Source: Zestosphaera tikiterensis (GTDB lineage Archaea > Thermoproteota > Thermoprotei_A > Sulfolobales > NBVN01). Taken from it: a stretch of DNA of 32,000 nucleotides. Shown piece after piece: positions 1-18,510 of the stretch. Below the pieces are notes generated by a model, which had not been told where the DNA came from, did not search any database, and was given only the letters and a program-made list of their open reading frames with translations. Location of the stretch: the NCBI GenBank assembly GCA_003056265.1, contig NBVN01000002.1, positions 30,001-62,000 of the forward strand. The letters run 5' to 3'. A program made the translations under genes and the position numbers. The stretch's first letter is position 1, and the number at the start of each line of letters is the position of its first letter.

Positions 1-781
1 TGTTTGGAGGCAATGCTATTACAATCAACAGCAGTAATGGTACAGCAACAAGAGATAATGTTAACGCTTCACTCAATTCATCAATAACAGGTTTAATTAA
101 ACATTTCATTTGTATAAACTTTTCGAGAACTGTAACAAGCCTAATATTGACTGCTGCATTTCTCAATTTCTTTGGTGTTTCCTTAAACGAAACACTCATC
201 AAATTAGTAGATCTAACCCTACGATCGAAAAGATATATCGTTACAGAGCTAAGAAACAGTGCTATAAGTCCACAGAGACTTTTCATGAATATGTCAGCAC
301 TGTTTTCATAGATTAAAAGTAAGAAAGATTGAGACTGAACGAAGAATATCCATCTGTATAATCCTCCCAGTGCTTCTATGCTAATACCTCGGAAACTATT
401 TGGTTTAGTTAATTTAGTTAAATATACTAACACTACTGGAAAAATGTAAAGTAGTGACAGCATTGCTTGAGGTAATAGAGAGTGTTGTGTTGTATTGAGA
501 ATAAAGACGAAAATAAATAGAATAGTTAAATCGAAAAGAAAGATGAAAGCTATCAAGAAATTTGTGAGAAACGTTAATTTAGGCAGAAGTCCAAACAGGA
601 ATACTATAAGGGAAACGATATTAAGCATTATGGCAATCATTAATGAGAAGTTGTCAGACGCGAACAACTGATAAAGCTGCAGTATTGCTCCAAGGAGTAT
701 TGCTGAAACCACACCAATAATAATGGATGTTAGTTTTAATATGTTTTCTGGAGCCCGTCTAAACCTCTTTACGTTGCTCAT
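1..781 (-). CDS. Multi-pass membrane protein of unknown function. The C-terminal end runs off the window (at least 260 codons). It is absent from the supplied ORF track.
   Basis: Hand translation of the minus strand from ATG at 781-779 gives MSNVKRFRRAPENILKLTSIIIGVVSAILLGAILQLYQLFASDNFSLMIAIMLNIVSLIVFLFGLL... It stays open with no stop to position 1 and has several long hydrophobic segments. GGAGGT (plus 789-794) sits 7 nt upstream of the ATG, with an AT-rich TATA-like stretch further upstream. Confidence 0.55.
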   Translation of the reverse strand, partial: MSNVKRFRRAPENILKLTSIIIGVVSAILLGAILQLYQLFASDNFSLMIAIMLNIVSLIVFLFGLLPKLTFLTNFLIAFIFLFDLTILFIFVFILNTTQHSLLPQAMLSLLYIFPVVLVYLTKLTKPNSFRGISIEALGGLYRWIFFVQSQSFLLLIYENSADIFMKSLCGLIALFLSSVTIYLFDRRVRSTNLMSVSFKETPKKLRNAAVNIRLVTVLEKFIQMKCLIKPVIDELSEALTLSLVAVPLLLLIVIALPPN

Positions 782-1538
782 CGCAGAAACCTCCGCAACG
801 AGTTTATTTATTAAAGATCCTAAATAAGTAATAACATCAACTAGGTAATAAGCATTTTACTTAATCGAATATATGTTGAACATACTTTTGACTGAGCATG
901 CAATTGGCTTTTAAAGCTGTTGAAAATTAATGCCAAGCATATATAGTTCTATAGATGAATTCGTAGCAAGTACAGGTCACAAGGATTACCGAAGTCTACG
1001 GTTCCCATTAACTTCAGACCTGTAGAAGAAGCGAGCCAATCGACCTCCAGAACAGGTTAAGGTTTCATAAAGACTTCGTTAAACATAGCTTCACATCTGA
1101 AGAGGTAGTCACTATTCAATGAAAGGTTGCCTCTTGCGAAACGTAGCAATTTATAGGCTACCTCAGCTGAAGAGATTTCAGAGCAGATGTTTTCTAATCT
1201 CTTGAGGTAACAATAGAGTAAGTCTGCCGACGAGAAAAAATATAAAGCGTTTCGACGGCGACATAACATGACTGAAGTAGCTTTCAAGCAACTTGATGAG
1301 GGGACTTTCCAGCCTAGAGAGCTGCTGTGGATAACCTGCGTGCGGGCCAAATTCCAGCGAATCCGTCATAGAATTGAATTCCCTTAATTGAATTTTCTGG
1401 TAGGTTTTCTAAATCTTCTAATTAAGTTTTAGGTGTTTGAAAGGCCTGCTCAGATCCTTCTTACCTCTGCTTAGATATTGGTTTTTAACATTAATAGTGA
1501 CGATCTTATAGAGGCATCCAACAAATAGCTCTCAGGAC

Positions 1539-1955
1539 TCATATACAAAATTCTCTTTTCCTCAAAAGTGTATAGAGATCTATACTCTTGGAGCATCTAA
1601 CTACCTCGACCTTAGACCTCATAGCAAGACTTTTAAGTAGGCTGTCAACACCACCTTTATGATGTAATAAAAGCATTTTTATGGCATTAGCGGGTTGCAG
1701 AAAATTTTTCTCTATAAGTCTATCATATGACTCTTCAAGTTTTCGGATATCCCTAAGCTCAGGCGTGCCCGTATCCTCAATAACTATATTGAGTACGTAT
1801 TCGCCACATTTTAAAACTAGAGCTACATCACTTTTCTTTTCATTTTTCTTTAAGGTCTGGTTTAAAACTTCATCTAAATTCGTCTGTTTTAATAATTCAG
1901 CGTTAGGCGGTAGGGTTATAGTTGTGTTTTTAATCTTTATCTTCTTCACAGTCAC
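1539..1955 (-). CDS. 138-aa protein of unknown function, translationally coupled to the upstream ATPase
   Basis: The ORF has a GTG start at 1955 and overlaps the ATPase stop (1930) by 26 nt. GGAGGT lies 7 nt upstream of the GTG, inside the ATPase 3' end. I recognise no catalytic or family motif in MTVKKIKIKNTTITLPP...NIVIEDTGTPELRD...LLLHHKGGVDSLL... Confidence 0.6.
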   Translation of the reverse strand: MTVKKIKIKNTTITLPPNAELLKQTNLDEVLNQTLKKNEKKSDVALVLKCGEYVLNIVIEDTGTPELRDIRKLEESYDRLIEKNFLQPANAIKMLLLHHKGGVDSLLKSLAMRSKVEVVRCSKSIDLYTLLRKREFCI

Positions 1956-3504
1956 GTATCCTACCTCCAGCTCTAAGTTTCTGGACTCTGTAGTAGAGTT
2001 TCATATGTTCTTCATAAAGTTCCTCAATGATTTTCTTAAACACGTCATCCCGAATACCCGTCTCACTTACCTTGACTTCTTCTACAATTGAGTAACCTTC
2101 ATCTTTCCTGAAGTTGTAGATCTTTACATCCTCAGGCTTTAATGCGACTCTAAATTCTGGCGCATTTGAAGATCCAGCCATAACCAAATTGCTAAGTTTG
2201 TTGAGTATCACATCGCTATGAGTTGTAATTATGACTCTTACGCCCAATCTCTTAGCTAAAAGCGTCAAGACTTCAATTAGCTTCGCCTGTTTATCCGGAT
2301 GTAGATGCGCCTCAGGCTCTTCGATAATCAAAATATCATTCTTTTTAATCGAACCATATTTAAGGTATAAATCAAGAGGACTAAGCTCAGCAATCATTGA
2401 AGACACATTAGAAAGTGGAAACTCGAATTCTTTAGACCTGTATATAGGCTCGGGAAGAGATATATCACCTCTTCTAACAAGCTCTACACTTCCTTCCAGT
2501 ATTTCCTCTAATGACTCGATGATCTCCTTTAACTCATCACTTATATTAATTGCCCTTGGATCCAACGATATAAGCTCCGCTAGAAAATCCGCTAAAGTCC
2601 CAGGAACGCTAGGAATCTCAGCACCGCGAATAGGCATACTAGGTACTGATTTTATTATTGCGGATGCTACAGTTCTATAGCTATATAAAATCCCTGCTCG
2701 CGAGGCTGGAAGATAATGAATGTCAAATTTAGCGAAATCTATTTCTAAATCTTCTAATAAATCTTCTAATATTTCTAATAAATATGGTAAATATGGTAAA
2801 AACTCTTCTGAAGTAACTCTCCTTGAAGTGATGACTCTAAAAAGACGGTAGTAACGTTCCTTTACGCCCTTTTCAAGGCTCCCCAGTATGGCATCTGTTT
2901 TTGCGGTAAGCTTAATGTCGAGATTTGCGTTCCTATCCTGCTTTATCCTAGGTTTTGGCATCGAGACTTTTAAGTCACAGCTTAATTCAAAGAATTTACC
3001 CTTAAGTTTAATGTTTGCTCTCATTTCGCTCGATCCCCGCCTTACAAGATCGGTAATTCTAGATGAGAATACCCTCTCGATCTCCTCTATTACGAGTTTT
3101 TTAAAGTTTTTAGAATTCAATAGCTTATTTAACTCATTTATGTAAAGCTCCATACCTCTCTCCACAAATTCCCCTAGAAGTTTGTTCAATTCTTCATTTT
3201 TGCGGTGGCTTTTAGGTTCTTTAGCTAGGCTCTGAGCTTTTTCTCGATATTCATTCACTAGCTTTTCTAACAAGTTTCCTAAGTCTTTCATTTCTATGAA
3301 TCTAAGGAATCCTTCCCTTATAATTTTCTGTATACTTTCTATCATACTTTCTATCGAAGCATACAAAAACATAGCTGTATAGGACTTCCCAGTATTGTTG
3401 GGTCCTATGAATAAGGTGATCGGTGCTAGTTCTATTTCTCCTTTCCCAACATATCCAAAGTTCTCGACATTAAGCCTAATGATATCTATCACCGTGCCCA
3501 CCAA
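1930..3504 (-). CDS. ABC/SMC-type (AAA_15/AAA_21-like, OLD/GajA/AriA/PtuA-class) ATPase, 524 aa
   Basis: The N-terminal beta-strand plus Walker A reads LFIGPNNTGKSYTAMFLY. A long helical insertion of about 300 aa, rich in E, K and L, follows. Walker B/D-loop is NDILIIEEPEAHLHPDKQ and the H-loop is VIITTHSDVI. A TATA-like TTATAATA (plus 3541-3548) lies about 37 nt upstream of the TTG/GTG start. Confidence 0.8.
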   Translation of the reverse strand: MVGTVIDIIRLNVENFGYVGKGEIELAPITLFIGPNNTGKSYTAMFLYASIESMIESIQKIIREGFLRFIEMKDLGNLLEKLVNEYREKAQSLAKEPKSHRKNEELNKLLGEFVERGMELYINELNKLLNSKNFKKLVIEEIERVFSSRITDLVRRGSSEMRANIKLKGKFFELSCDLKVSMPKPRIKQDRNANLDIKLTAKTDAILGSLEKGVKERYYRLFRVITSRRVTSEEFLPYLPYLLEILEDLLEDLEIDFAKFDIHYLPASRAGILYSYRTVASAIIKSVPSMPIRGAEIPSVPGTLADFLAELISLDPRAINISDELKEIIESLEEILEGSVELVRRGDISLPEPIYRSKEFEFPLSNVSSMIAELSPLDLYLKYGSIKKNDILIIEEPEAHLHPDKQAKLIEVLTLLAKRLGVRVIITTHSDVILNKLSNLVMAGSSNAPEFRVALKPEDVKIYNFRKDEGYSIVEEVKVSETGIRDDVFKKIIEELYEEHMKLYYRVQKLRAGGRIRDCEEDKD

Positions 3505-4246
3505 ACACGTCTCTAAATCTATCCCTAAGAGACATATGAATATTATAACTAATAAAGTATTGAATGATTGCTCGCTTAGCGATAACTGGGATATTCACAA
3601 ACTTTGGATAAGCAATGTAATAGAATACGAGAATAGTTTCCCTCCAGAATCTAGTTCTGCTGATGTAAGTTACTGTCGCTAAATTGTTGAATGTTACCAT
3701 GTGTGAATCATTGGGTGAACTGTGATTTTGGTTTCAACCCCTTTAAAGCTGTCTAGCGTATCTGAATGCTACCATAGCTAGATGTTACAGTCAACTCTTA
3801 GAACTTTACATCAGTAATTTAGCTCACCATAGTTGAAGATCTTAATAAAGTTGCGATAAATTAGAAACGTGTCTACAAAATATTGTGGGCTCGTTACGCA
3901 GATCAGGGCCACGATAACCTGCTCTAGAAAATTTTCTCCAAGTATATACTCAAGTTGTTGTTGAGGTCCTTAAAGTGTGTAGTCAGTGAAATCTATTTGA
4001 ATACTTAAAGTGCGTTACTGGTGTTGTCGAAAAAGTGTTTGCGAGGGAGAGGTTATAGAGGTTTTAAGAGAGGTCGAGAGGCTTATAGGGAGGTTAAAGC
4101 TCAGATCGGGCATCGACACGCATATACGTGGTCTTGCTAAAGGGCTTGTTTGAGGTCTTTCCGATAAGATAGCGGGATAAAATATTAGGTGTTAATCTTA
4201 AATTCTATGGGAGACTTAGAAGCGCTAGTGTTGGATATGTTAGCAA

Positions 4247-10290: not shown

Positions 10291-11907
10291 GTGTGGATGA
10301 CTGAAGCATCCGTTGAGAAGTTTAAGTCGCTATCGCCTTCGGAGTTCTTCTACCGTAATAAAGAGATAGCGGGTTTCAGCAACCCTGCTAGAGCCTTATA
10401 CCAAACGGTTAGAGAGCTTGTTGAAAACGCTTTAGATGCTACGGATTCCCATCATATATTACCGGACATTAAAGTAATCATAAAGAATGAGGTTGAAACC
10501 CCTACCTCGGGGTTGGTCGGTTTATCAGAGGCTTTCGAAGGTGGTTTATACAGCGTTCAAGTAGAGGATAACGGCATTGGCTTACCGCCGTCCCACGTTC
10601 CGAGAGCTTTCGGGCAACTCCTATACAGCTCTAAATACGTCTTAAGGCAAACAAGGGGTATGTTTGGGTTAGGTGCTAAGATGGCTGTTCTTTACGGGCA
10701 GATAACAACCGGCAAACCTGCGGAGATAACTACGTCTCAAGTAACGTCTAAGAGGGTTTACTACTATAGGATAGGTATAGACGTGATTAACAACACCCCG
10801 ATAATTCACGAAGCCGCTACGTATATGAAGACTAACGACTGGCACGGTACGATAGTTAAGATATACTTGGTTGGGGATTGGCAGAGGTCCAAACAGAAGA
10901 TCTACGAGTATTTAAAGAGGACTGCGATCATAGCTCCCTACGCTAACATATATTTTGAAGATCCTGACGGAGAGATAATGTTATTTAAGAGATCGACTGA
11001 GGAGATGCCTCCCCCGCCTAGGGAGGTGCAGCCGCATCCCTACGGCGTCGATTTAGAGATGCTTAAGATGATGGCAGCGACGACTAAAGCGTCTACTTTA
11101 GTTGAGTTTCTTTATAAGGAGTTCCAAAGCGTAGGCATCACAACAGCTAATGAGATAGTTCAACGTAGTGGGTTAAGACCTGATTTAAAACCTAGTGACT
11201 TAACCTTAGAGGATCTTATGAAGGTGTTGAAAGCTATTAAAGAAACTAACGTAAAACCGCCTAGAGCTGACCATCTTTCAAACCTCGGGGAGAAACTTAT
11301 AGAGATAGGTTTGAAGGAATCTTTAAAGCCGGAATTCGTTAAAGCAGTTACTAGGAAGCCCAGCGTTTATGAAGGGCATGCGTTCATTGTGGAGGCCGGC
11401 ATAGCCTACGGGGGTAGGATCCCACCATCCGATAAGGATTTCATACCGTTGCTTAGATACGCTAATAAAATACCTCTGCTATATGATGAGGCGGCTGACG
11501 TAATGCGCGCTGTGGTGAGGAACATCGATTGGGAGAGGTACGACGTTGTTTTCCCCGCACCTTTAGTAGTGTTGATACACATATGCAGTACTAAAGTACC
11601 TTATAAAGGCGTTGGTAAGGAAGCGGTTGCCGACGTTCCAGAGGTTGAGAGGGAGATGGAGCTTGCGGTTAAGGAAGCGGCTAGAGAGCTTAAGTCCTAC
11701 TTAAATATGAAGGCTAGGGAGAGGGAGGAAGCTGAGAAAGCCGTAACTATAGCTAAGTACATCCCTAACGTGTCGAGATCCCTGTCAAGGATTGTAGGTA
11801 AGGTTAGTGAGGAAGTCCTAGCTAGGGAATTGCTGAACATGCTTAACAAGAGGTTAACCTCGTTTAAGATCAAGAACTTAAGCGATGTTTTCGTGGGGGT
11901 GGAGTAG
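10291..11907 (+). CDS. top6B: DNA topoisomerase VI subunit B (GHKL ATPase). ATG 10297 is a plausible start.
   Basis: The GHKL N-box is ELVENALDA, the G1 box is VEDNGIGL, and the motif GMFGLGAKMAV is present. Size is about 535 aa. Its stop abuts the GTG start of top6A. Confidence 0.92.
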   Translation: MWMTEASVEKFKSLSPSEFFYRNKEIAGFSNPARALYQTVRELVENALDATDSHHILPDIKVIIKNEVETPTSGLVGLSEAFEGGLYSVQVEDNGIGLPPSHVPRAFGQLLYSSKYVLRQTRGMFGLGAKMAVLYGQITTGKPAEITTSQVTSKRVYYYRIGIDVINNTPIIHEAATYMKTNDWHGTIVKIYLVGDWQRSKQKIYEYLKRTAIIAPYANIYFEDPDGEIMLFKRSTEEMPPPPREVQPHPYGVDLEMLKMMAATTKASTLVEFLYKEFQSVGITTANEIVQRSGLRPDLKPSDLTLEDLMKVLKAIKETNVKPPRADHLSNLGEKLIEIGLKESLKPEFVKAVTRKPSVYEGHAFIVEAGIAYGGRIPPSDKDFIPLLRYANKIPLLYDEAADVMRAVVRNIDWERYDVVFPAPLVVLIHICSTKVPYKGVGKEAVADVPEVEREMELAVKEAARELKSYLNMKAREREEAEKAVTIAKYIPNVSRSLSRIVGKVSEEVLARELLNMLNKRLTSFKIKNLSDVFVGVE

Positions 11908-14370
11908 GTGGTTTCAGCTATAGACGCTAAAGTTAGGTTGAAAGCTTTAGAGGTTCTAAGGGAGAAGTTCTCATCTTTAGTTAACGATATAATGGAGGGG
12001 AAACCGCCGACATTAGTTATTAAGAAAAGGACTTTATCGAATACTATATACGACAGCGCTTCAGGCCTTCTTAAATTAGGTGACGCTACGTTTAAGAGGA
12101 GCTTCTTCAACGTAGCTGAAGCTAAGAAATTCATGCAAACGGTTCTTATGGCTAGCATAATATATGAAGCGCTTAAAAACAATGAATACCCAACGATAAG
12201 AGACCTCTACTATAGAGGTAAGCATACGATAAAGTATCGTGACCCAATAACGCGTAAAGTCAGGGAGGAGAACACGTGGGAGGAGCAGAAAGAATCTGAT
12301 TCAGTGATTAGAGATTTAGAAGTGTTTATAGACATGCTACGTGAGGAGATGCTGATTTTAAGTAAGGAGAAGGGGAAGGTAGTAGGGGATATGAGGATTA
12401 GATCCGGTGACGACGTTATAGACTTAAGTAAGATGGGTCACGGAGCATACGCTATAGAACCCACGCCGGACTTCATAGAGTTCCTGGACGTCAACGCTGA
12501 ATACGTGTTGGTTATAGAGAAGGACGCAGTCTTCCAGCAACTGCATAGGTTGGGTTACTGGAAGAAGAATAAGGCGTTGTTAGTTACCAGCGCTGGCCAA
12601 CCGGATAGAGCCACTAGAAGGTTTGTTAGGAGGTTAAATGAAGAGTTAAAACTTCCTGTTTACATCCTTACAGACAGTATACCCGCGGACGAAGTCGTTG
12701 TGGTTAAAGACCCCATCACTGGCGAGGTAAGAGTGGATTCGATTGAGGAGCTTGTCGGTAAGTACTTCACAAACCTTGAGAGGGAGAGGGTGGATGTACC
12801 GTTGGAGGTTCTTTCACGGGACCCGAAAACGGGTAGGGTTAGATGGTCTCACATAGCGTATGTCTACAGACATAGGGTTAAGGAACCGATATTGAAGATA
12901 CGCACTAAAGGACGAGGGGTCGTAAGAGTAACTAAAGCTCACTCCCTATTCGTATTTAGAGACGGGAGAATACAAGTAATACCAGCTAAAGAGATACGTC
13001 CAGGAGACTATATAGTCGTAGCTAAAAGCCTACCGTACCTCACTAACTCAGTTGAATCCGTAATTACCGTAGCTCATATACTCCGAGAAACCACAGCTAA
13101 GCATTTCAGACAGTTAAACAACCGCAACGCAGTCTTCATAGTTAAAGACGGCATGAAGATTAAGTTGGAGGAGGCTTCCGAAGACGACATATTTAAAGCA
13201 GAGGCGGTTAAGCTCTCAAGGTCTAAATGGCTCATACCTAATAAAGTGAAGGTAGATGAAGACCTCGCGTGGTTTATGGGTGTATACACAGCTAGGGGAA
13301 GCGATTTAAACAACTGTTGTCTGCTTCTTAGCTTTAACTTAAGAGAGAAGGACTTAATAGATAAGGTAGTGAAGGTAGTGAAGGAGAAATTCAATGTAGT
13401 TCCTAAGGTTGACGTAAACACCGATAGAGAGCAGGTAAGGATTCGGATAAATTCAAAAATACTTCACGTAATCTTTAGTGAGATAGGGCTTTTAGGGAAG
13501 GCAACAACGAAGCGGGTGCCGAACGTTATATTGAACTCCCCATATAATGTAGCGTTAGCATACGTGAAAGGTCTTATAGACGGCGGTGGGCTTAGTGACG
13601 GATATGGAAGCATAACATACCCAGTTAAAAACCCGATATTAGCTCGTCAAATCTTCATATTGCTACAAGCTTTAGGATTGAACCCAACGCTAACTCAAGA
13701 TGGAGATAATATAGCGTTGAAGGTAGTTAAAGAAGATCGTCAAATACCGTTGGATGTTCATAGATATCCATCCACCAACGTAAAGACGGAGCTTGCGTAC
13801 ATTCCAGACGGGGGTTACTTAGTTAATTCGGAAACTCACCCCAACCACGTCTTCGGCGATGCTATAGTCGTGCCTGTGGAGTATGTAGAGGAGGAACCGT
13901 ATGAAGGCTATGTTTACGACTTCGCCGTCCCCGGCGATAATTCATTCATAGGCGGGTATGGTGTGGTGTATCATAACAGCGATCCTTACGGATGGTATAT
14001 ATACAGCGTGTTTAAAGTAGGTTCTATAACTTTATCTTATGAAAGCGAGCGCTTAGCTACCCCAAGCGCTAGGTTCTTAGGGGTTATGATGACCGACATA
14101 TTCGGTTCTCAAAAACTAAATAAGAAACCGTATCTTACAGAGGCTGAAAGAAGGAACTATATAATTAAAGCTAAGGAAAGAGATAAGAAGAGGGCTAAAG
14201 AGCTTGAAAACTATAAATGGTTCCAAACGCCAAGGTGGAAGATAGAGATTGACGTATTCCGTGAGAAGGAAGCCAAGCTTGAGATAGAGGCTTTAACAAG
14301 TAAGGGATTGGTTTTCTTAGCTGATAAATACCTACCGGAGAAAATAAGCGTGGGTGATTGGATTGCTTAG
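11908..14370 (+). CDS. top6A: DNA topoisomerase VI subunit A (Spo11 homologue) interrupted in frame by an intein. The exteins total 386 aa.
   Basis: The 5Y-CAP region reads TIRDLYYRG, the Toprim Glu is in VLVIEKDAVF, and the SAGQPDRATRRFVRRL motif is present. LPVYILTD is split from SDPYGWYIYSV by 434 aa bounded by Ser1 and His-Asn/Ser+1. Confidence 0.92.
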   Translation: MVSAIDAKVRLKALEVLREKFSSLVNDIMEGKPPTLVIKKRTLSNTIYDSASGLLKLGDATFKRSFFNVAEAKKFMQTVLMASIIYEALKNNEYPTIRDLYYRGKHTIKYRDPITRKVREENTWEEQKESDSVIRDLEVFIDMLREEMLILSKEKGKVVGDMRIRSGDDVIDLSKMGHGAYAIEPTPDFIEFLDVNAEYVLVIEKDAVFQQLHRLGYWKKNKALLVTSAGQPDRATRRFVRRLNEELKLPVYILTDSIPADEVVVVKDPITGEVRVDSIEELVGKYFTNLERERVDVPLEVLSRDPKTGRVRWSHIAYVYRHRVKEPILKIRTKGRGVVRVTKAHSLFVFRDGRIQVIPAKEIRPGDYIVVAKSLPYLTNSVESVITVAHILRETTAKHFRQLNNRNAVFIVKDGMKIKLEEASEDDIFKAEAVKLSRSKWLIPNKVKVDEDLAWFMGVYTARGSDLNNCCLLLSFNLREKDLIDKVVKVVKEKFNVVPKVDVNTDREQVRIRINSKILHVIFSEIGLLGKATTKRVPNVILNSPYNVALAYVKGLIDGGGLSDGYGSITYPVKNPILARQIFILLQALGLNPTLTQDGDNIALKVVKEDRQIPLDVHRYPSTNVKTELAYIPDGGYLVNSETHPNHVFGDAIVVPVEYVEEEPYEGYVYDFAVPGDNSFIGGYGVVYHNSDPYGWYIYSVFKVGSITLSYESERLATPSARFLGVMMTDIFGSQKLNKKPYLTEAERRNYIIKAKERDKKRAKELENYKWFQTPRWKIEIDVFREKEAKLEIEALTSKGLVFLADKYLPEKISVGDWIA
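12676..13977 (+). mobile_element. Intein (434 aa) with a LAGLIDADG-type homing endonuclease domain, inserted in the Top6A Toprim DxD motif
   Basis: Block A begins SIPADEVVVV (Ser1). Block B TxxH is TKAH (12931-12942). LAGLIDADG-like blocks are LAWFMGVYTARGS (about 13261-13305) and AYVKGLIDGGGLSDG (about 13552-13605). Blocks F/G read YVYDFAVPGDNSFIGGYGVVYHN and are followed by the +1 Ser. Removing the intein restores LTD-SDPYG. Confidence 0.85.
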
Positions 14371-15109: not shown

Positions 15110-15925
15110 TTAACCGCTGAACGCAGCTACGTATTTAGTAAGGTCTGTTAAAGTAGCTATACCTTTAAGCAAACCCTCATTTGAAGTTATTAACACGGCT
15201 CTTACATTCTTCTCTAACATGAGGGCTGCCGCCGTGCCTATGGCGTCATCGCTCTTAAGCATTGGGGTGATTGGACGCATTACATCACGCACCGCAATCC
15301 TCTTTAAAGCGTCTTTAGCTCCGGCTTCAGCTATTATATCAAGCAACTCAACCAAGGCGTTTAGCAACTCATCTAAGGTTAACATACCAACGATCTTACC
15401 TTCGAGGTTTACTACGGGGAGTGAGGAAAAGCCTTCGTCAATCATTAACTTTCTAGCCATGATTAAGGAGTCCGTATCTCTAACTATCGTAACGTCGGTG
15501 GTCATGATCTGAGATAGCGGTCTTGAGTTCGTTGTAAGTATTTTAGCTATATCCCACTTAGTTAACATGCCGGTTACTTCATCGCCTTCCATTATGGGTA
15601 AGCAGCTGAAGTTCTTCTCAACCATCACTCTAGCCGCTTTAGGTAGGGTTACGTTGGGTTGGGTTGTGTAAAGCGGGGACGTCATTACGGATGAAGCGTG
15701 AAGAGCTGATATAGGGTATCTTCTACTCTTTGTAGTAGCTACTCTAGTGATTATGTCCTTCTTAGTGAGTATTCCTTCAGGCGTTAAATTGCTGTAGACG
15801 ATGGCTCTATCCGTTTTAAACTTCTCCATAGATTTTACTACGTTAGCTAATGACTCATTCTTACTGACTTTAAGGAACTCTTTAGACGCTATCTCCTTAA
15901 CAGTAACTAAAGTTATATCCACCAT
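15110..15925 (-). CDS. CBS-domain-only protein (4 CBS repeats), fourth gene of a CBS operon
   Basis: Four repeats of about 60 aa each end in motifs such as GILTKKDII, GMLTKWDIAKIL, GMLTLDELLNAL and GIATLTDLTKYV. No other domain is visible. Confidence 0.8.
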   Translation of the reverse strand: MVDITLVTVKEIASKEFLKVSKNESLANVVKSMEKFKTDRAIVYSNLTPEGILTKKDIITRVATTKSRRYPISALHASSVMTSPLYTTQPNVTLPKAARVMVEKNFSCLPIMEGDEVTGMLTKWDIAKILTTNSRPLSQIMTTDVTIVRDTDSLIMARKLMIDEGFSSLPVVNLEGKIVGMLTLDELLNALVELLDIIAEAGAKDALKRIAVRDVMRPITPMLKSDDAIGTAAALMLEKNVRAVLITSNEGLLKGIATLTDLTKYVAAFSG

Positions 15926-15930
15926 GACGG

Positions 15931-16782
15931 CTACACCTGCCTTAAAGCGTTTATAACGTCTTTCTTGGTTAACAACCCTATCAACTCACCTTCGTTGTTA
16001 ACTACGGGTAACGTCCCTATGCGGTTCTTAACCATTATGTCGGCAGCTAGAGCTAAGTCCTCATCGGGGTGGACTGTTATAGGGTTTGGAGTCATTATGT
16101 CACCGGCTACGGGCACTGTATAAACGCGTATGATTCCTTCAAAACCTCGACCTGTTACTCCAGGTCTCTTAACGTACTTTACCTTCCTGTAGCTTTCAGC
16201 TACGTCTATGTTGAGGAATAGGACGTCAGACTTCGTTATTACGCCGACGGGCTTCCTCCCCTCAACAACTACTACCTTCCCTAAACCCGATTCGTTCATT
16301 AAGTCTATCACGTAATATAGCGAATGCGTTAAAGTGGCTGTAGGGACTTCCTTAATCATGAAGTCCCCCACTTTATACCTGCCAGAGTATTTCTCAGCGT
16401 AGGCCCTCACTAAATCCGCCTTAGTTATTATCCCAACAAGCTTCTGATCTTCGTCAAACACGAGTAGGGAACCTACGTTCTTCTTAATCATTGCTTGAGC
16501 GGCTACTTTAATGGATTTGTTGGACTGTATTCCTAACACAGGTATGGTCGCGATCTCAAACGCGAGTATATTATCCAGAGGCTTAACATACCTCTTCCTG
16601 TTGTAGAGGATCCTAATGAAGTCGCTTTTACTGATTATACCGTATACGTTCCCCTCCTCGTCTAGTAAGACTACCTTACCTATCTTATGTCTAATCATTA
16701 AGTTGCGGATGTGGGCTAAGCTATCGTTTTTAGACGCTGTTATTACAGGGCTACTCATGTAGGAGGACACTCTAGGGGGCAT
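15931..16782 (-). CDS. CBS-domain-only protein (4 CBS repeats), third gene of the operon
   Basis: Repeats end in GIISKSDFIRIL, GIITKADLVRAY, GVITKSDVLFL and GLLTKKDVINAL. A 5-nt gap separates it from the next gene. Confidence 0.8.
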   Translation of the reverse strand: MPPRVSSYMSSPVITASKNDSLAHIRNLMIRHKIGKVVLLDEEGNVYGIISKSDFIRILYNRKRYVKPLDNILAFEIATIPVLGIQSNKSIKVAAQAMIKKNVGSLLVFDEDQKLVGIITKADLVRAYAEKYSGRYKVGDFMIKEVPTATLTHSLYYVIDLMNESGLGKVVVVEGRKPVGVITKSDVLFLNIDVAESYRKVKYVKRPGVTGRGFEGIIRVYTVPVAGDIMTPNPITVHPDEDLALAADIMVKNRIGTLPVVNNEGELIGLLTKKDVINALRQV

Positions 16783-16783
16783 A

Positions 16784-17716
16784 CTACACCACCAAACCGT
16801 AAATAATGTCTCTCTCGGTTATAATACCTGCAAGCCTACCGTCTTCCGACACCAGCAGCAACGATGTTTGCGTCTCAAGGATTTTAGACGCAGCTTCACT
16901 TATATCTGCTTGAGGATCGATTAACATAACTTCAGGGGTCATTACGGAGGTAACCGGTATGGAGGCAAACTCATCTAACGTCTTTAAGCTTAAGACGTTG
17001 AAGATTTTATGAGTGCCTATTAAGTCAATGACGTCCTTCCACGTGAAGATCCCTACGACCTTCTCCCCCGAAACTACAGGTAACCTCCTAACGCCTAAGT
17101 TAATCATTAACTTCATAGCTGTGCTTAACTTACTGTTTTCATCTACGCTTAACACCTCCCTAGTCATTACATCAGCTACTTTAACGCCTACATGCTTGTA
17201 AGTTAAGAACTTAACTATTTCATACTCCGTTATTATGCCTACGTACTTGTTTTGACTCACTACCGGAACGGCACCTAAGCCTAAGTTAACCATCAACTCC
17301 AACAACTTACTTAACTTTAGAGACTCCTCCACAACTACGGGGTTTTCAGTCATTATCTTACCCGCCGGTACTTGAAGGATGTCGTAGATCGTAGGTAGCT
17401 TAAGGTTTAAGACGATGTTATGTTTTAACCCGCCGCCTAGGTAGTCTATTATATCCGTAGCTGTAATCACGCCGATGACTTCATTACGTCCGGTAAGAAC
17501 CGGTATTAACCTGGTGTTGAGTTTACTCATTAACTCACACACGTTTAGGATGGGTGTTGATGTGTTAACACCTGGAACGTCCCTACGTATTAAGGGACTT
17601 AACTCGGGGGTTTTATCATGTATTCTACTCTTAAAGTTTGGTTTACCGTCGCTTCTAAGCCATCTATTCCTCTCACGTAACCTTCTAGGTGTGTAGACTT
17701 TAACCAAGGTTCTCAC
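16784..17716 (-). CDS. CBS-domain-only protein (4 CBS repeats) with a basic N-terminal extension of about 40 aa, second gene of the operon
   Basis: Repeats end in GVITATDIIDYL, GIITEYEIVKFL, GIFTWKDVIDLI and GIITERDIIYGL. The N-terminus reads MRTLVKVYTPRRLRERNRWLRSDGKPNFKSR. Confidence 0.8.
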   Translation of the reverse strand: MRTLVKVYTPRRLRERNRWLRSDGKPNFKSRIHDKTPELSPLIRRDVPGVNTSTPILNVCELMSKLNTRLIPVLTGRNEVIGVITATDIIDYLGGGLKHNIVLNLKLPTIYDILQVPAGKIMTENPVVVEESLKLSKLLELMVNLGLGAVPVVSQNKYVGIITEYEIVKFLTYKHVGVKVADVMTREVLSVDENSKLSTAMKLMINLGVRRLPVVSGEKVVGIFTWKDVIDLIGTHKIFNVLSLKTLDEFASIPVTSVMTPEVMLIDPQADISEAASKILETQTSLLLVSEDGRLAGIITERDIIYGLVV

Positions 17717-18510
17717 CTAGGCCTTAAATAAACAAGGCATAAATCGCTTCTGTCTACGATGCCTACGAGTTTATATGAGTCGTCAACTATCGGCACCCTA
17801 CCGAAGTCCTTCTTAACCATTAACGAGACCGCATCCCTAACCTTATTATACGGTTTCAACACCTCAGCCGGTGAGGTCATAGCTTCTTTTATCTTAGGTC
17901 CGGGACGCGGGCCTGATTCAGATTCAAGCTCTATTCGGGTATAGCCTTTCTTCAGTAGGTCATGTTGTGTTATGATGCCTACAACCACTAAGTCTCTATT
18001 CCTAGCTACTGGGAAACCACTATACCTGAGCTCAACCATCTTCCTCCAAACCTTACTTACAGGGTCTTCAGGACTTACGTATTCTACGTTAGTAGACATA
18101 ACATCCGAAAGCTTTATCTCGTGAAGTGGAGTGTCCTTACGAATGACTTCCCTTAGGAAAGCATCGAGGGAAATCACCCCTAAGTACTTATTACCTACCT
18201 CACTAACTACTGGTGAATACCATTCGTCGAACTCTATCATTGTTTTGAAAACCTTCACGTCTTCCTCCTCAGGCTTAAACACTAAGTGAGGTTCCTCCAT
18301 AACGTTAGCCACTATAGCGTCGGATTTAGTGGATGTAAGCGTTAAAACATGCTCACGCCTCACAACACCTACTAAGTTCATGTCTTCATTAACTACGGGA
18401 AGCATACGCAGGCCTAAATCACGCATAAGCGCCCTAGCCTGCGTTAGTAAAGAATTAGGTGATATTTTAGGGTATCTAGAATTCATTAACGCTCTAATCC
18501 GCAAACTCAC
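17713..18510 (-). CDS. CBS-domain-only protein (4 CBS repeats), first gene of the operon
   Basis: Repeats end in GVVRREHVLTL, GVISLDAFLREV, GIITQHDLLKKG and GIVDRSDLCLVY. It overlaps the next gene by 4 nt. A TATA-like ATATATTT lies about 30 nt upstream. Confidence 0.8.
   Translation of the reverse strand: MSLRIRALMNSRYPKISPNSLLTQARALMRDLGLRMLPVVNEDMNLVGVVRREHVLTLTSTKSDAIVANVMEEPHLVFKPEEEDVKVFKTMIEFDEWYSPVVSEVGNKYLGVISLDAFLREVIRKDTPLHEIKLSDVMSTNVEYVSPEDPVSKVWRKMVELRYSGFPVARNRDLVVVGIITQHDLLKKGYTRIELESESGPRPGPKIKEAMTSPAEVLKPYNKVRDAVSLMVKKDFGRVPIVDDSYKLVGIVDRSDLCLVYLRPR

Follow-up and report, generated by a model that had tools for sequence, protein, structure and literature searches.

Can a topoisomerase gene whose catalytic metal site is split by 434 additional codons still give an active enzyme, and can the element that splits it still move? 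The question is raised by top6A, the gene for the cleavage subunit of topoisomerase VI (Topo VI), in a 32,000-nucleotide stretch of contig NBVN01000002.1 of the archaeon Zestosphaera tikiterensis (this whole stretch is referred to as the window). The insert is a canonical class 1 intein, made up of a Hint splicing domain with a nested LAGLIDADG domain. It is very likely an immobile, vertically inherited element that has remained competent in splicing.

The insert in the Toprim domain of Top6A

The top6A reading frame is composed of two host segments, the N-extein and the C-extein, and of the intein that lies between them, with the following features.

11908..14370, + strand: top6A precursor open reading frame (ORF), 820 residues, GTG start, stop included
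11908..12675, + strand: N-extein, residues 1–256, with the 5Y-CAP domain and the Toprim Glu, aligned to 2zbk_A, 1d3y_A and 2q2e_A
12208..12213, + strand: RDLYYRG tyrosine motif in the 5Y-CAP domain of the N-extein
12517..12519, + strand: Toprim Glu204, in the N-extein
12673..12675, + strand: Asp256, first Asp of DxD and last residue of the N-extein
12676..13977, + strand: class 1 intein, 434 residues, Ser1 to Asn434 (precursor residues 257–690)
12676..12705, + strand: block A, SIPADEVVVV, with Ser1 as N-terminal nucleophile
12931..12942, + strand: block B, T86-K-A-H89
13900..13977, + strand: blocks F and G, YEGYVYDFAVPGDNSFIGGYGVVYHN, with D415, H433 and N434; NCBIfam intein_Cterm above its cut-off
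13978..14370, + strand: C-extein, residues 691–820 plus stop
13978..13980, + strand: +1 Ser (Ser691), the x of DxD
13981..13983, + strand: Asp692, second Asp of DxD, followed by PYG

The hallmarks of the Top6A/Spo11 family are all present: a 5Y-CAP domain with the catalytic Tyr motif, a Toprim domain with its Glu and DxD, and an encoded Top6B partner. The RDLYYRG motif, E204 and D256-S-D258 (spliced numbering) line up with the Top6A structures 2zbk, 1d3y and 2q2e. The NCBIfam equivalog for Top6A, NF003336, matches the precursor at 647 bits (cut-off 531) in two stretches flanking the insert, and a Pfam scan of the full precursor returned TP6A_N, Topo_VI_alpha and the TOP6A-Spo11 Toprim domain, the last in two stretches with Intein_splicing between them.

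Alignment to the solved Top6A structures placed the insert between the first Asp (Asp256) and the x position (Ser257 of the precursor) of the Toprim D-x-D, the −1 residue of the intein being the catalytic Asp and the +1 Ser the variable x. Removal of the intein in silico gave a 386-residue protein that aligned along its whole length with the Top6A of Sulfolobus shibatae (2zbk_A, E value 3.5e-171), and also aligned with the Top6A structures of M. jannaschii and M. mazei. The spliced junction, ...LPVYILTD-SDPYGWYIYSVFK, is free of gaps against 2zbk_A ('klpvyiltDsDpygwyiysvf' against 'klpvyiltDaDpygwyifsvf'), and in the DNA the intein-free site corresponds to the region where TTACAGAC joins AGCGATCC. 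The Toprim profile, which matched in two pieces at 178.8 bits before removal, gave a single match over profile positions 1–170 at 198.8 bits after it.

The acidic DxD cluster and the Toprim Glu (E204 here) bind the Mg2+ required for DNA cleavage by Top6A/Spo11, as is reported from work on M. jannaschii Top6A (Nichols et al. 1999) and from a mutagenesis study of Spo11 (Diaz et al. 2002). Because 434 residues separate the two metal-binding aspartates, the precursor can reasonably be expected, from the position of the insert, to stay catalytically inactive until it is spliced.

The intein runs from SIPADEVVVV to GVVYHN, preceded by LPVYILTD and followed by SDPYGWYIYSV. Pfam Intein_splicing matched the insert far above chance, with an E value of 6e-17 (about 62–64.5 bits, cut-off 35.8), and NCBIfam intein_Nterm and intein_Cterm were both above their cut-offs, the latter (TIGR01443) at 21–23 bits against 15.6. 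In an alignment of 48 homologues, whose members are only 32–61% identical to the window intein, 23 positions are invariant, including S1, T86, H89, D415, H433 and N434 and likewise Y409, G411, V413 and Y414. The features of a class 1 intein are thus found together: Ser1, TxxH, the block F Asp, the penultimate His and terminal Asn, Ser+1, the Hint fold, and a host protein that is restored on removal and has empty alleles elsewhere.

An AlphaFold2 model of the intein built on the 48-homologue alignment had a mean predicted local distance difference test (pLDDT) score of 88.2 and a predicted template modelling (pTM) score of 0.87, with pLDDT above 90 across both Hint halves. In a Foldseek search against the PDB, the top match was the intein PI-PkoII (2cw7; E value 2e-28, template modelling score on the query, TMq, 0.72), which is also the closest solved protein by sequence (E value 3e-21). 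Further matches were to the bifunctional inteins TliVMA (9e-25), PhoVMA, PI-PfuI (2e-18) and PI-SceI (2e-11). The Hint part matched the mini-inteins 4e2t, 5o9i and 7oec at a root mean square deviation of 2.2–2.6 Å, and the endonuclease part matched I-DmoI and I-Tsp061I with template modelling scores on the target (TMt) of 0.62–0.67.

A sequence-only reading of the window had proposed an intein of 434 residues at 12676–13977 in an 820-residue Top6A ORF, opening with Ser, containing TKAH and ending in HN before a Ser. Those coordinates proved exact to the base and every one of the residues is in place (TKAH at intein positions 86–89). The intein call itself is borne out by the invariance of blocks A, B, F and G in the 48 homologues and by a model with a Hint plus LAGLIDADG fold. 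Its claim that removal joins LPVYILTD to SDPYGWYIYSV, restoring D-x-D-P-x-G with the +1 Ser as x, agrees with the gap-free 2zbk_A alignment and the single Toprim match.

Splicing, selection on the host gene and its annotation

Selection on the two parts of the gene was compared at the codon level between the window and two metagenomic alleles, L021 (98% identical) and L022 (76% identical). The ratios of non-synonymous to synonymous substitution rates (dN/dS) were as follows.

Extein: 0.025 against L021, 0.030 against L022
Whole intein: 0.31 against L021, 0.23 against L022
N-terminal Hint part: 0.17 against L021, 0.11 against L022
Endonuclease part: 0.57 against L021, 0.28 against L022
C-terminal Hint part: 0 against L021, 0.15 against L022

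The ratio for the intein is about ten times that for the extein. The very low extein dN/dS (0.025 and 0.030) is that of a Top6A kept functional throughout, and it is the strongest indirect sign that the window intein splices.

The steps of splicing can be proposed from the known chemistry of the intein family. Translation of top6A would yield the 820-residue precursor, with no working cleavage centre before splicing. Ser1 would undergo an N–O acyl shift, helped by T86 and H89, and the +1 Ser would then attack the ester formed by Ser1. Asn434 would cyclise with the help of H433 and D415, releasing the 434-residue intein, and an O–N shift would leave a normal peptide bond in a 386-residue Top6A with an intact LTD-SDPYG.

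On a rival account the insertion does not splice, and top6A is either a pseudogene or encodes a protein with a permanent extra domain. The GenBank record, which holds only a 545-residue 'hypothetical protein', would suit such a case, but the splicing residues are all intact and invariant, an extein dN/dS of 0.03 is that of a functional gene, the reading frame is open across 820 codons, and the truncated annotation is accounted for by an internal GTG at 12733. Taken against these observations, a non-splicing insertion is barely credible.

The public annotation of Z. tikiterensis top6A is wrong. The GenBank coding sequence (CDS) PUA33697.1 (B7O98_01335; 12733..14370, + strand) begins at that internal GTG, twenty codons inside the intein, and its residues are residues 276–820 of the window protein, differing only at the initiator. 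Because the start was placed within the intein, the first 275 codons and the Top6A identity are missing from the public CDS, and the UniRef name for the same 545-residue product is "DOD-type homing endonuclease domain-containing protein". Fragments from related Zestosphaera and Desulfurococcaceae metagenome-assembled genomes (MAGs) carry, in the clusters examined, the NCBI labels "hypothetical protein" or "LAGLIDADG family homing endonuclease, partial". The JGI pipeline labels some same-site proteins "DNA topoisomerase VI subunit A/intein/homing endonuclease". Surveys of Top6A/Spo11 must strip such inserts before alignment.

State of the endonuclease and mode of inheritance

The nested domain retains two LAGLIDADG helices in a pseudo-dimer fold (alpha-beta-beta-alpha-beta-beta-alpha) in the model, with changes at the following positions.

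13264..13302, + strand: first LAGLIDADG helix (block C), LAWFMGVYTARGS; family consensus LAWLLGLYTAEGS
13294..13296, + strand: Arg207, catalytic position of block C; Glu or Asp in relatives
13555..13596, + strand: second LAGLIDADG helix (block E), LAYVKGLIDGGGLS; family consensus YIKGLIDGDG
13585..13587, + strand: Gly304, catalytic position of block E; Asp in relatives
13735..13848, + strand: eroded remnant of the endonuclease-associated region, intein residues 354–391, the only segment with pLDDT below 50

The acids at the C-terminal ends of the two helices are the metal-binding catalytic residues of LAGLIDADG enzymes, as known from the enzymology of I-CreI, PI-SceI and I-DmoI. Both are absent from the window intein: block C reads LAWFMGVYTA-R-GS where the family has LAWLLGLYTA-E-GS, and block E reads YVKGLIDG-G-G where the family has YIKGLIDG-D-G. 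In the AlphaFold2 model, helix 195–207 ends at R207 and helix 290–304 ends at G304, and alignment to PI-PkoII sets R207 opposite its Glu and G304 opposite the Asp of its GDG. Past intein residue 366, about 44 alignment columns kept by 34 acid-bearing relatives are gone from the window copy, and this gap coincides with the low-confidence loop of the model. The Pfam LAGLIDADG_3 match (E value 0.00067) scores 20.3 bits, below the 22.5-bit cut-off. Of the two LAGLIDADG-like blocks named in the sequence-only reading, both exist (intein residues 197–209 and 294–307), but in degenerate form, their catalytic acids replaced.

Because both catalytic acids are replaced and about 44 residues are deleted, the endonuclease of the window intein is, to judge from its sequence, very probably dead, and the intein is probably no longer mobile. 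Its means of spreading would have gone with the changes to R207 and G304 and the deleted segment.

The mode of inheritance can be read from the synonymous substitution rates (dS), which were 0.045 for the intein and 0.043 for the extein against L021, and 1.23 and 1.00, respectively, against L022. The guanine-plus-cytosine (GC) content of the intein, 0.442, is host-like (0.424 in the window). Because the intein dS is about that of the extein and the GC content is host-like, the two appear to have been co-inherited vertically over a long time in the Zestosphaera lineage. Recent horizontal arrival of the window copy was considered and rejected on the same match of GC and dS to the host gene.

A still-mobile intein, whose LAGLIDADG domain would cut intein-free top6A alleles and spread by gene conversion, would account for the high model confidence with which the fold is retained, for an endonuclease-region dN/dS below 1, and for the existence of same-site relatives in which both acids are intact and horizontal transfer is indicated. 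Against it stand the replacement of both metal-binding acidic positions, the loss of residues that acid-bearing relatives keep, the sub-threshold LAGLIDADG_3 score, the equality of intein and extein dS, which points to co-inheritance, and the state of the clade as a whole, every Zestosphaera-clade intein being without at least one catalytic acid. Continued mobility of the window copy is therefore very unlikely.

The window and P0002 are 93% identical in the extein and only 61% identical in the intein. Over all members of the family, identity in the extein shows no correlation with identity in the intein (Spearman rho 0.04). In P0041 and P0021/P0272, which keep both acids, the inteins are 85% identical and the Top6A exteins only 68–69%, a sequence pattern that suggests recent horizontal homing between lineages elsewhere in the same-site family.

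Distribution of the site, related inteins and neighbouring genes

The site is occupied in many public sequences. A word-indexed search returned 110 proteins, 84 of which have H-N/S-D-P-Y-G (here and below a slash marks the splice or insertion point). Search results, cluster members and 50%-identity representatives together gave a set of 90 inteins, all at exactly D/S...HN/SDPYG, from public metagenome and MAG proteins. They are 181–514 residues long, and all 90 start with Ser; all same-site inteins from a motif scan end in HN/S. The set divides into four states.

Full length, both acids kept: 34 of 90
Full length, one acid kept: 10 of 90
Full length, no acid (the window intein and its nearest relatives): 24 of 90
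Under 350 residues: 22 of 90

Empty sites are found as well. A genome scan with the full precursor returned 14 loci (L001–L014), from Zestosphaera sp., Desulfurococcales, Desulfurococcaceae, Acidilobaceae and Caldisphaera MAGs, all of them intein-free and of the form D/[SCA]DPYG (DSDPYG, DCDPYG or DADPYG). The sequence-only reading had proposed looking in relatives for intein-free alleles, and these are such alleles, with S, C or A at the x position; a +1 nucleophile is accordingly available at the site by nature. In a neighbour-joining tree of the exteins, empty alleles are interspersed among occupied ones, and two empty sisters, L001 (a Zestosphaera MAG) and L002, are nested within the clade that holds the window Top6A. 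This sporadic pattern of occupied and empty sites is a prediction of the homing cycle, and all stages of that cycle are visible at the one site: both-acid copies with signs of transfer, degenerate full-length copies, minimised copies of 181–340 residues and empty sites. Such a natural series of both-acid, degenerate, minimised and empty alleles lends itself to the study of intein decay.

Crenarchaeota generally have Topo VI as their main or only type II topoisomerase. If this holds for Z. tikiterensis, Topo VI function would depend on the splicing of the window intein. The intein would then persist without mobility because any mutation abolishing splicing would inactivate Topo VI, and nothing short of a rare deletion, exact to the codon, would remove it.

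Persistence might instead reflect use. The immobilised intein may have been co-opted as a conditional switch whose splicing answers temperature, the DNA substrate or Top6B, as in the case of the Pyrococcus horikoshii RadA intein. It has been kept over a dS of at least 1 despite a dead endonuclease, its endonuclease region is under partial constraint (dN/dS 0.28–0.57), it lies directly in the catalytic metal site, and inteins without an endonuclease are documented to splice conditionally in proteins of DNA metabolism (PMC8987985, citing Lennon 2016 and Belfort 2017). Yet retention is expected anyway when only codon-precise deletion is viable, the close same-clade relatives L001 and L002 live without the intein, Ser1 and Ser+1 provide no redox-sensitive cysteines, and nothing was found that points specifically to regulation. 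A switch of this kind is thus unlikely, and about equally doubtful is the wider proposal that the intein has been domesticated as a post-translational gate of Topo VI. Were such a gate real, Topo VI would become active in Zestosphaera only once a cue (temperature, DNA or Top6B binding) had triggered splicing.

Several points weigh against an immobile, vertically inherited intein held in place by the need to splice. The neighbour-joining extein tree, which carries no support values, cannot separate loss from independent gain at the empty sites. The indispensability of Topo VI is taken from general knowledge of Crenarchaeota, with 32 kb of the genome at hand. The endonuclease region, at dN/dS 0.28–0.57, is below 1 and not neutral, so some constraint is left, which may come from a structural part in folding and splicing or from another function. 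Lastly, the dN/dS ratios against the closest relative are built on few substitutions, there being 27 nucleotide differences in the intein.

Public data hold at least seven intein sites in Top6A. Two residues upstream of the window site, at L/TDxDP with a +1 Thr, lies an unrelated intein family (about 24% identity, 490–575 residues; P0105–P0108, P0116, P0119, P0122, P0124 and P0153), in which several copies end in KN or SN rather than HN. Further sites are VL/C-VEKD and E/C around the catalytic Toprim Glu, QNE/SDP in the 5Y-CAP domain and G/S in the VGSITL segment, carried together by P0121, P0134, P0170, P0252, P0123 and P0145. Some 50–70 extra residues in the C-terminal Toprim/C-extein region of P0010, P0012, P0015–P0017, P0089–P0103 and others are not an intein; they occur in the intein-free Fervidicoccus type Top6A (453–456 residues) and are absent from the window protein and S. 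shibatae Top6A.

Two codons downstream of the window site, at DxD/S-YG (LTDxD/S...HN/SYG), the metagenomic Top6A proteins P0084, P0086, P0088 and P0111 carry inteins of the same family as the window intein (33–42% identical, with SIPxxE starts and YHN ends), the +1 Ser taking the place of Pro in DxDPYG. Among these hosts, P0084, P0086 and P0088 are 68–75% identical to the standard D/SDP hosts P0080 and P0081, with which P0111 shares only about 46% identity. P0143 is an intein-free allele that reads DSDSYG, which shows that Ser is found by nature at the +1 position of the shifted site. That DxD is a hot-spot along which one family has moved its insertion point is a speculative reading, held to be improbable; if a two-codon shift from D/SDP to DxD/SYG between sister lineages did take place, intein insertion points can move along a motif.

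In architecture the window intein resembles PI-PkoII (Thermococcus kodakarensis Pol-2, 2cw7), TliVMA (7qss), PI-PfuI (1dq3) and PI-SceI (1vde), all of which combine Hint and LAGLIDADG domains. PI-PkoII and the window intein are also alike in blocks B, F and G, down to an ending of the form F(I/L)xGxGxVY..N. PI-PkoII differs in its host protein and site, is only about 21% identical, and has catalytic Glu and Asp where the window intein has Arg207 and Gly304; the window intein is about 100 residues shorter, with the disordered remnant at 354–391. The mini-intein of Pyrococcus horikoshii RadA (4e2t), a neighbour of the Hint domain in fold and in sequence (E value 6e-12), is likewise an intein without endonuclease activity that a hyperthermophile retains in an enzyme of DNA metabolism. 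The endonuclease domain of the RadA intein is fully lost and its conditional splicing has been shown, whereas the window intein keeps a degenerate domain. Inteins in mycobacteriophage TOPRIM (primase/topoisomerase) proteins (Kelley et al. 2016, PMC5050341) are also inserted in a Toprim active site, but their hosts are phage primase-like proteins and not Top6A/Spo11, and their intein lineage is unrelated.

Inteins are described as clustering in replisome and topology proteins in the main text of two surveys (Soucy et al. 2014, PMC4071816; Novikova et al. 2016, PMC4760082), which names Top6B, TopA, GyrB and reverse gyrase as archaeal topoisomerase exteins; Top6A is not among the exteins of that main text, the supplementary tables lying outside the search. 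The Top6B inteins that these texts report from Halobacteria and other archaea belong to the same enzyme and the same general class of element, but sit in the ATPase B subunit and not in the cleavage subunit A, and in lineages given there as Euryarchaeota and 'Other Archaea', not Crenarchaeota. Villain et al. 2022 (PMC9348778) mention that inteins were present in several of their Top6A and Top6B sequences and were removed by hand. Inteins in Top6A had therefore been noticed earlier, but that paper gives neither site, taxa nor description and does not separate Top6A from Top6B, so that they cannot be matched to the window allele. A full-text search, outside which lay survey supplements and InBase, found no paper describing the Top6A site, and returned only Top6B inteins and this one passing Top6A remark. 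The suggestion of a possible new allele in the sequence-only reading therefore holds in part: the same site recurs about 90 times in public metagenome and MAG proteins, and no searchable paper describes it. It is a standard kind of intein at a site met many times in sequence databases and undescribed in searchable papers. The case adds one more to the inteins in catalytic motifs of DNA-handling enzymes and leaves that picture unchanged. The cysteine-free, thermostable Hint domains of this family, with Ser1 and Ser+1, could serve protein engineering.

Directly upstream of top6A lies the gene for its partner subunit, which ends one base before the top6A start.

10291..11907, + strand: top6B, topoisomerase VI subunit B (Pfam Topo-VIb_trans, 2e-61, and HATPase_c)

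The same B–A gene order is found in relatives. Pfam scans of 23 ORFs found no second intein in the window, and tRNA and Rfam scans of the window gave zero matches. A nested antisense gene in the intein was considered and set aside, the ORF in question (13074..13421, − strand, 115 residues) being judged a mere consequence of coding on the other strand. Apart from the intein, the window consists of ordinary archaeal housekeeping genes, among them those for HisRS, deoxyhypusine synthase, tRNA-splicing endonuclease, an aIF-2B family protein, thermosome, ABCE1, PAN and archaeosine TGT.

Window positions 1..4000 have a low GC content (0.34–0.38, against about 0.43 elsewhere). An ORF in this stretch (1930..3504, − strand) encodes a 524-residue AAA_15/AAA_21 ATPase that matches the PADLOC defence models PD-T4-4_A (2.5e-38), NsnB and AriA. 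The low-GC stretch is a possible defence island or mobile island; the ATPase gene had no identified partner. At 15110..18510 (− strand) there are four successive multi-CBS-domain genes, encoding proteins of 271, 283, 310 and 265 residues, the last two confirmed by Pfam and the first two read from sequence.

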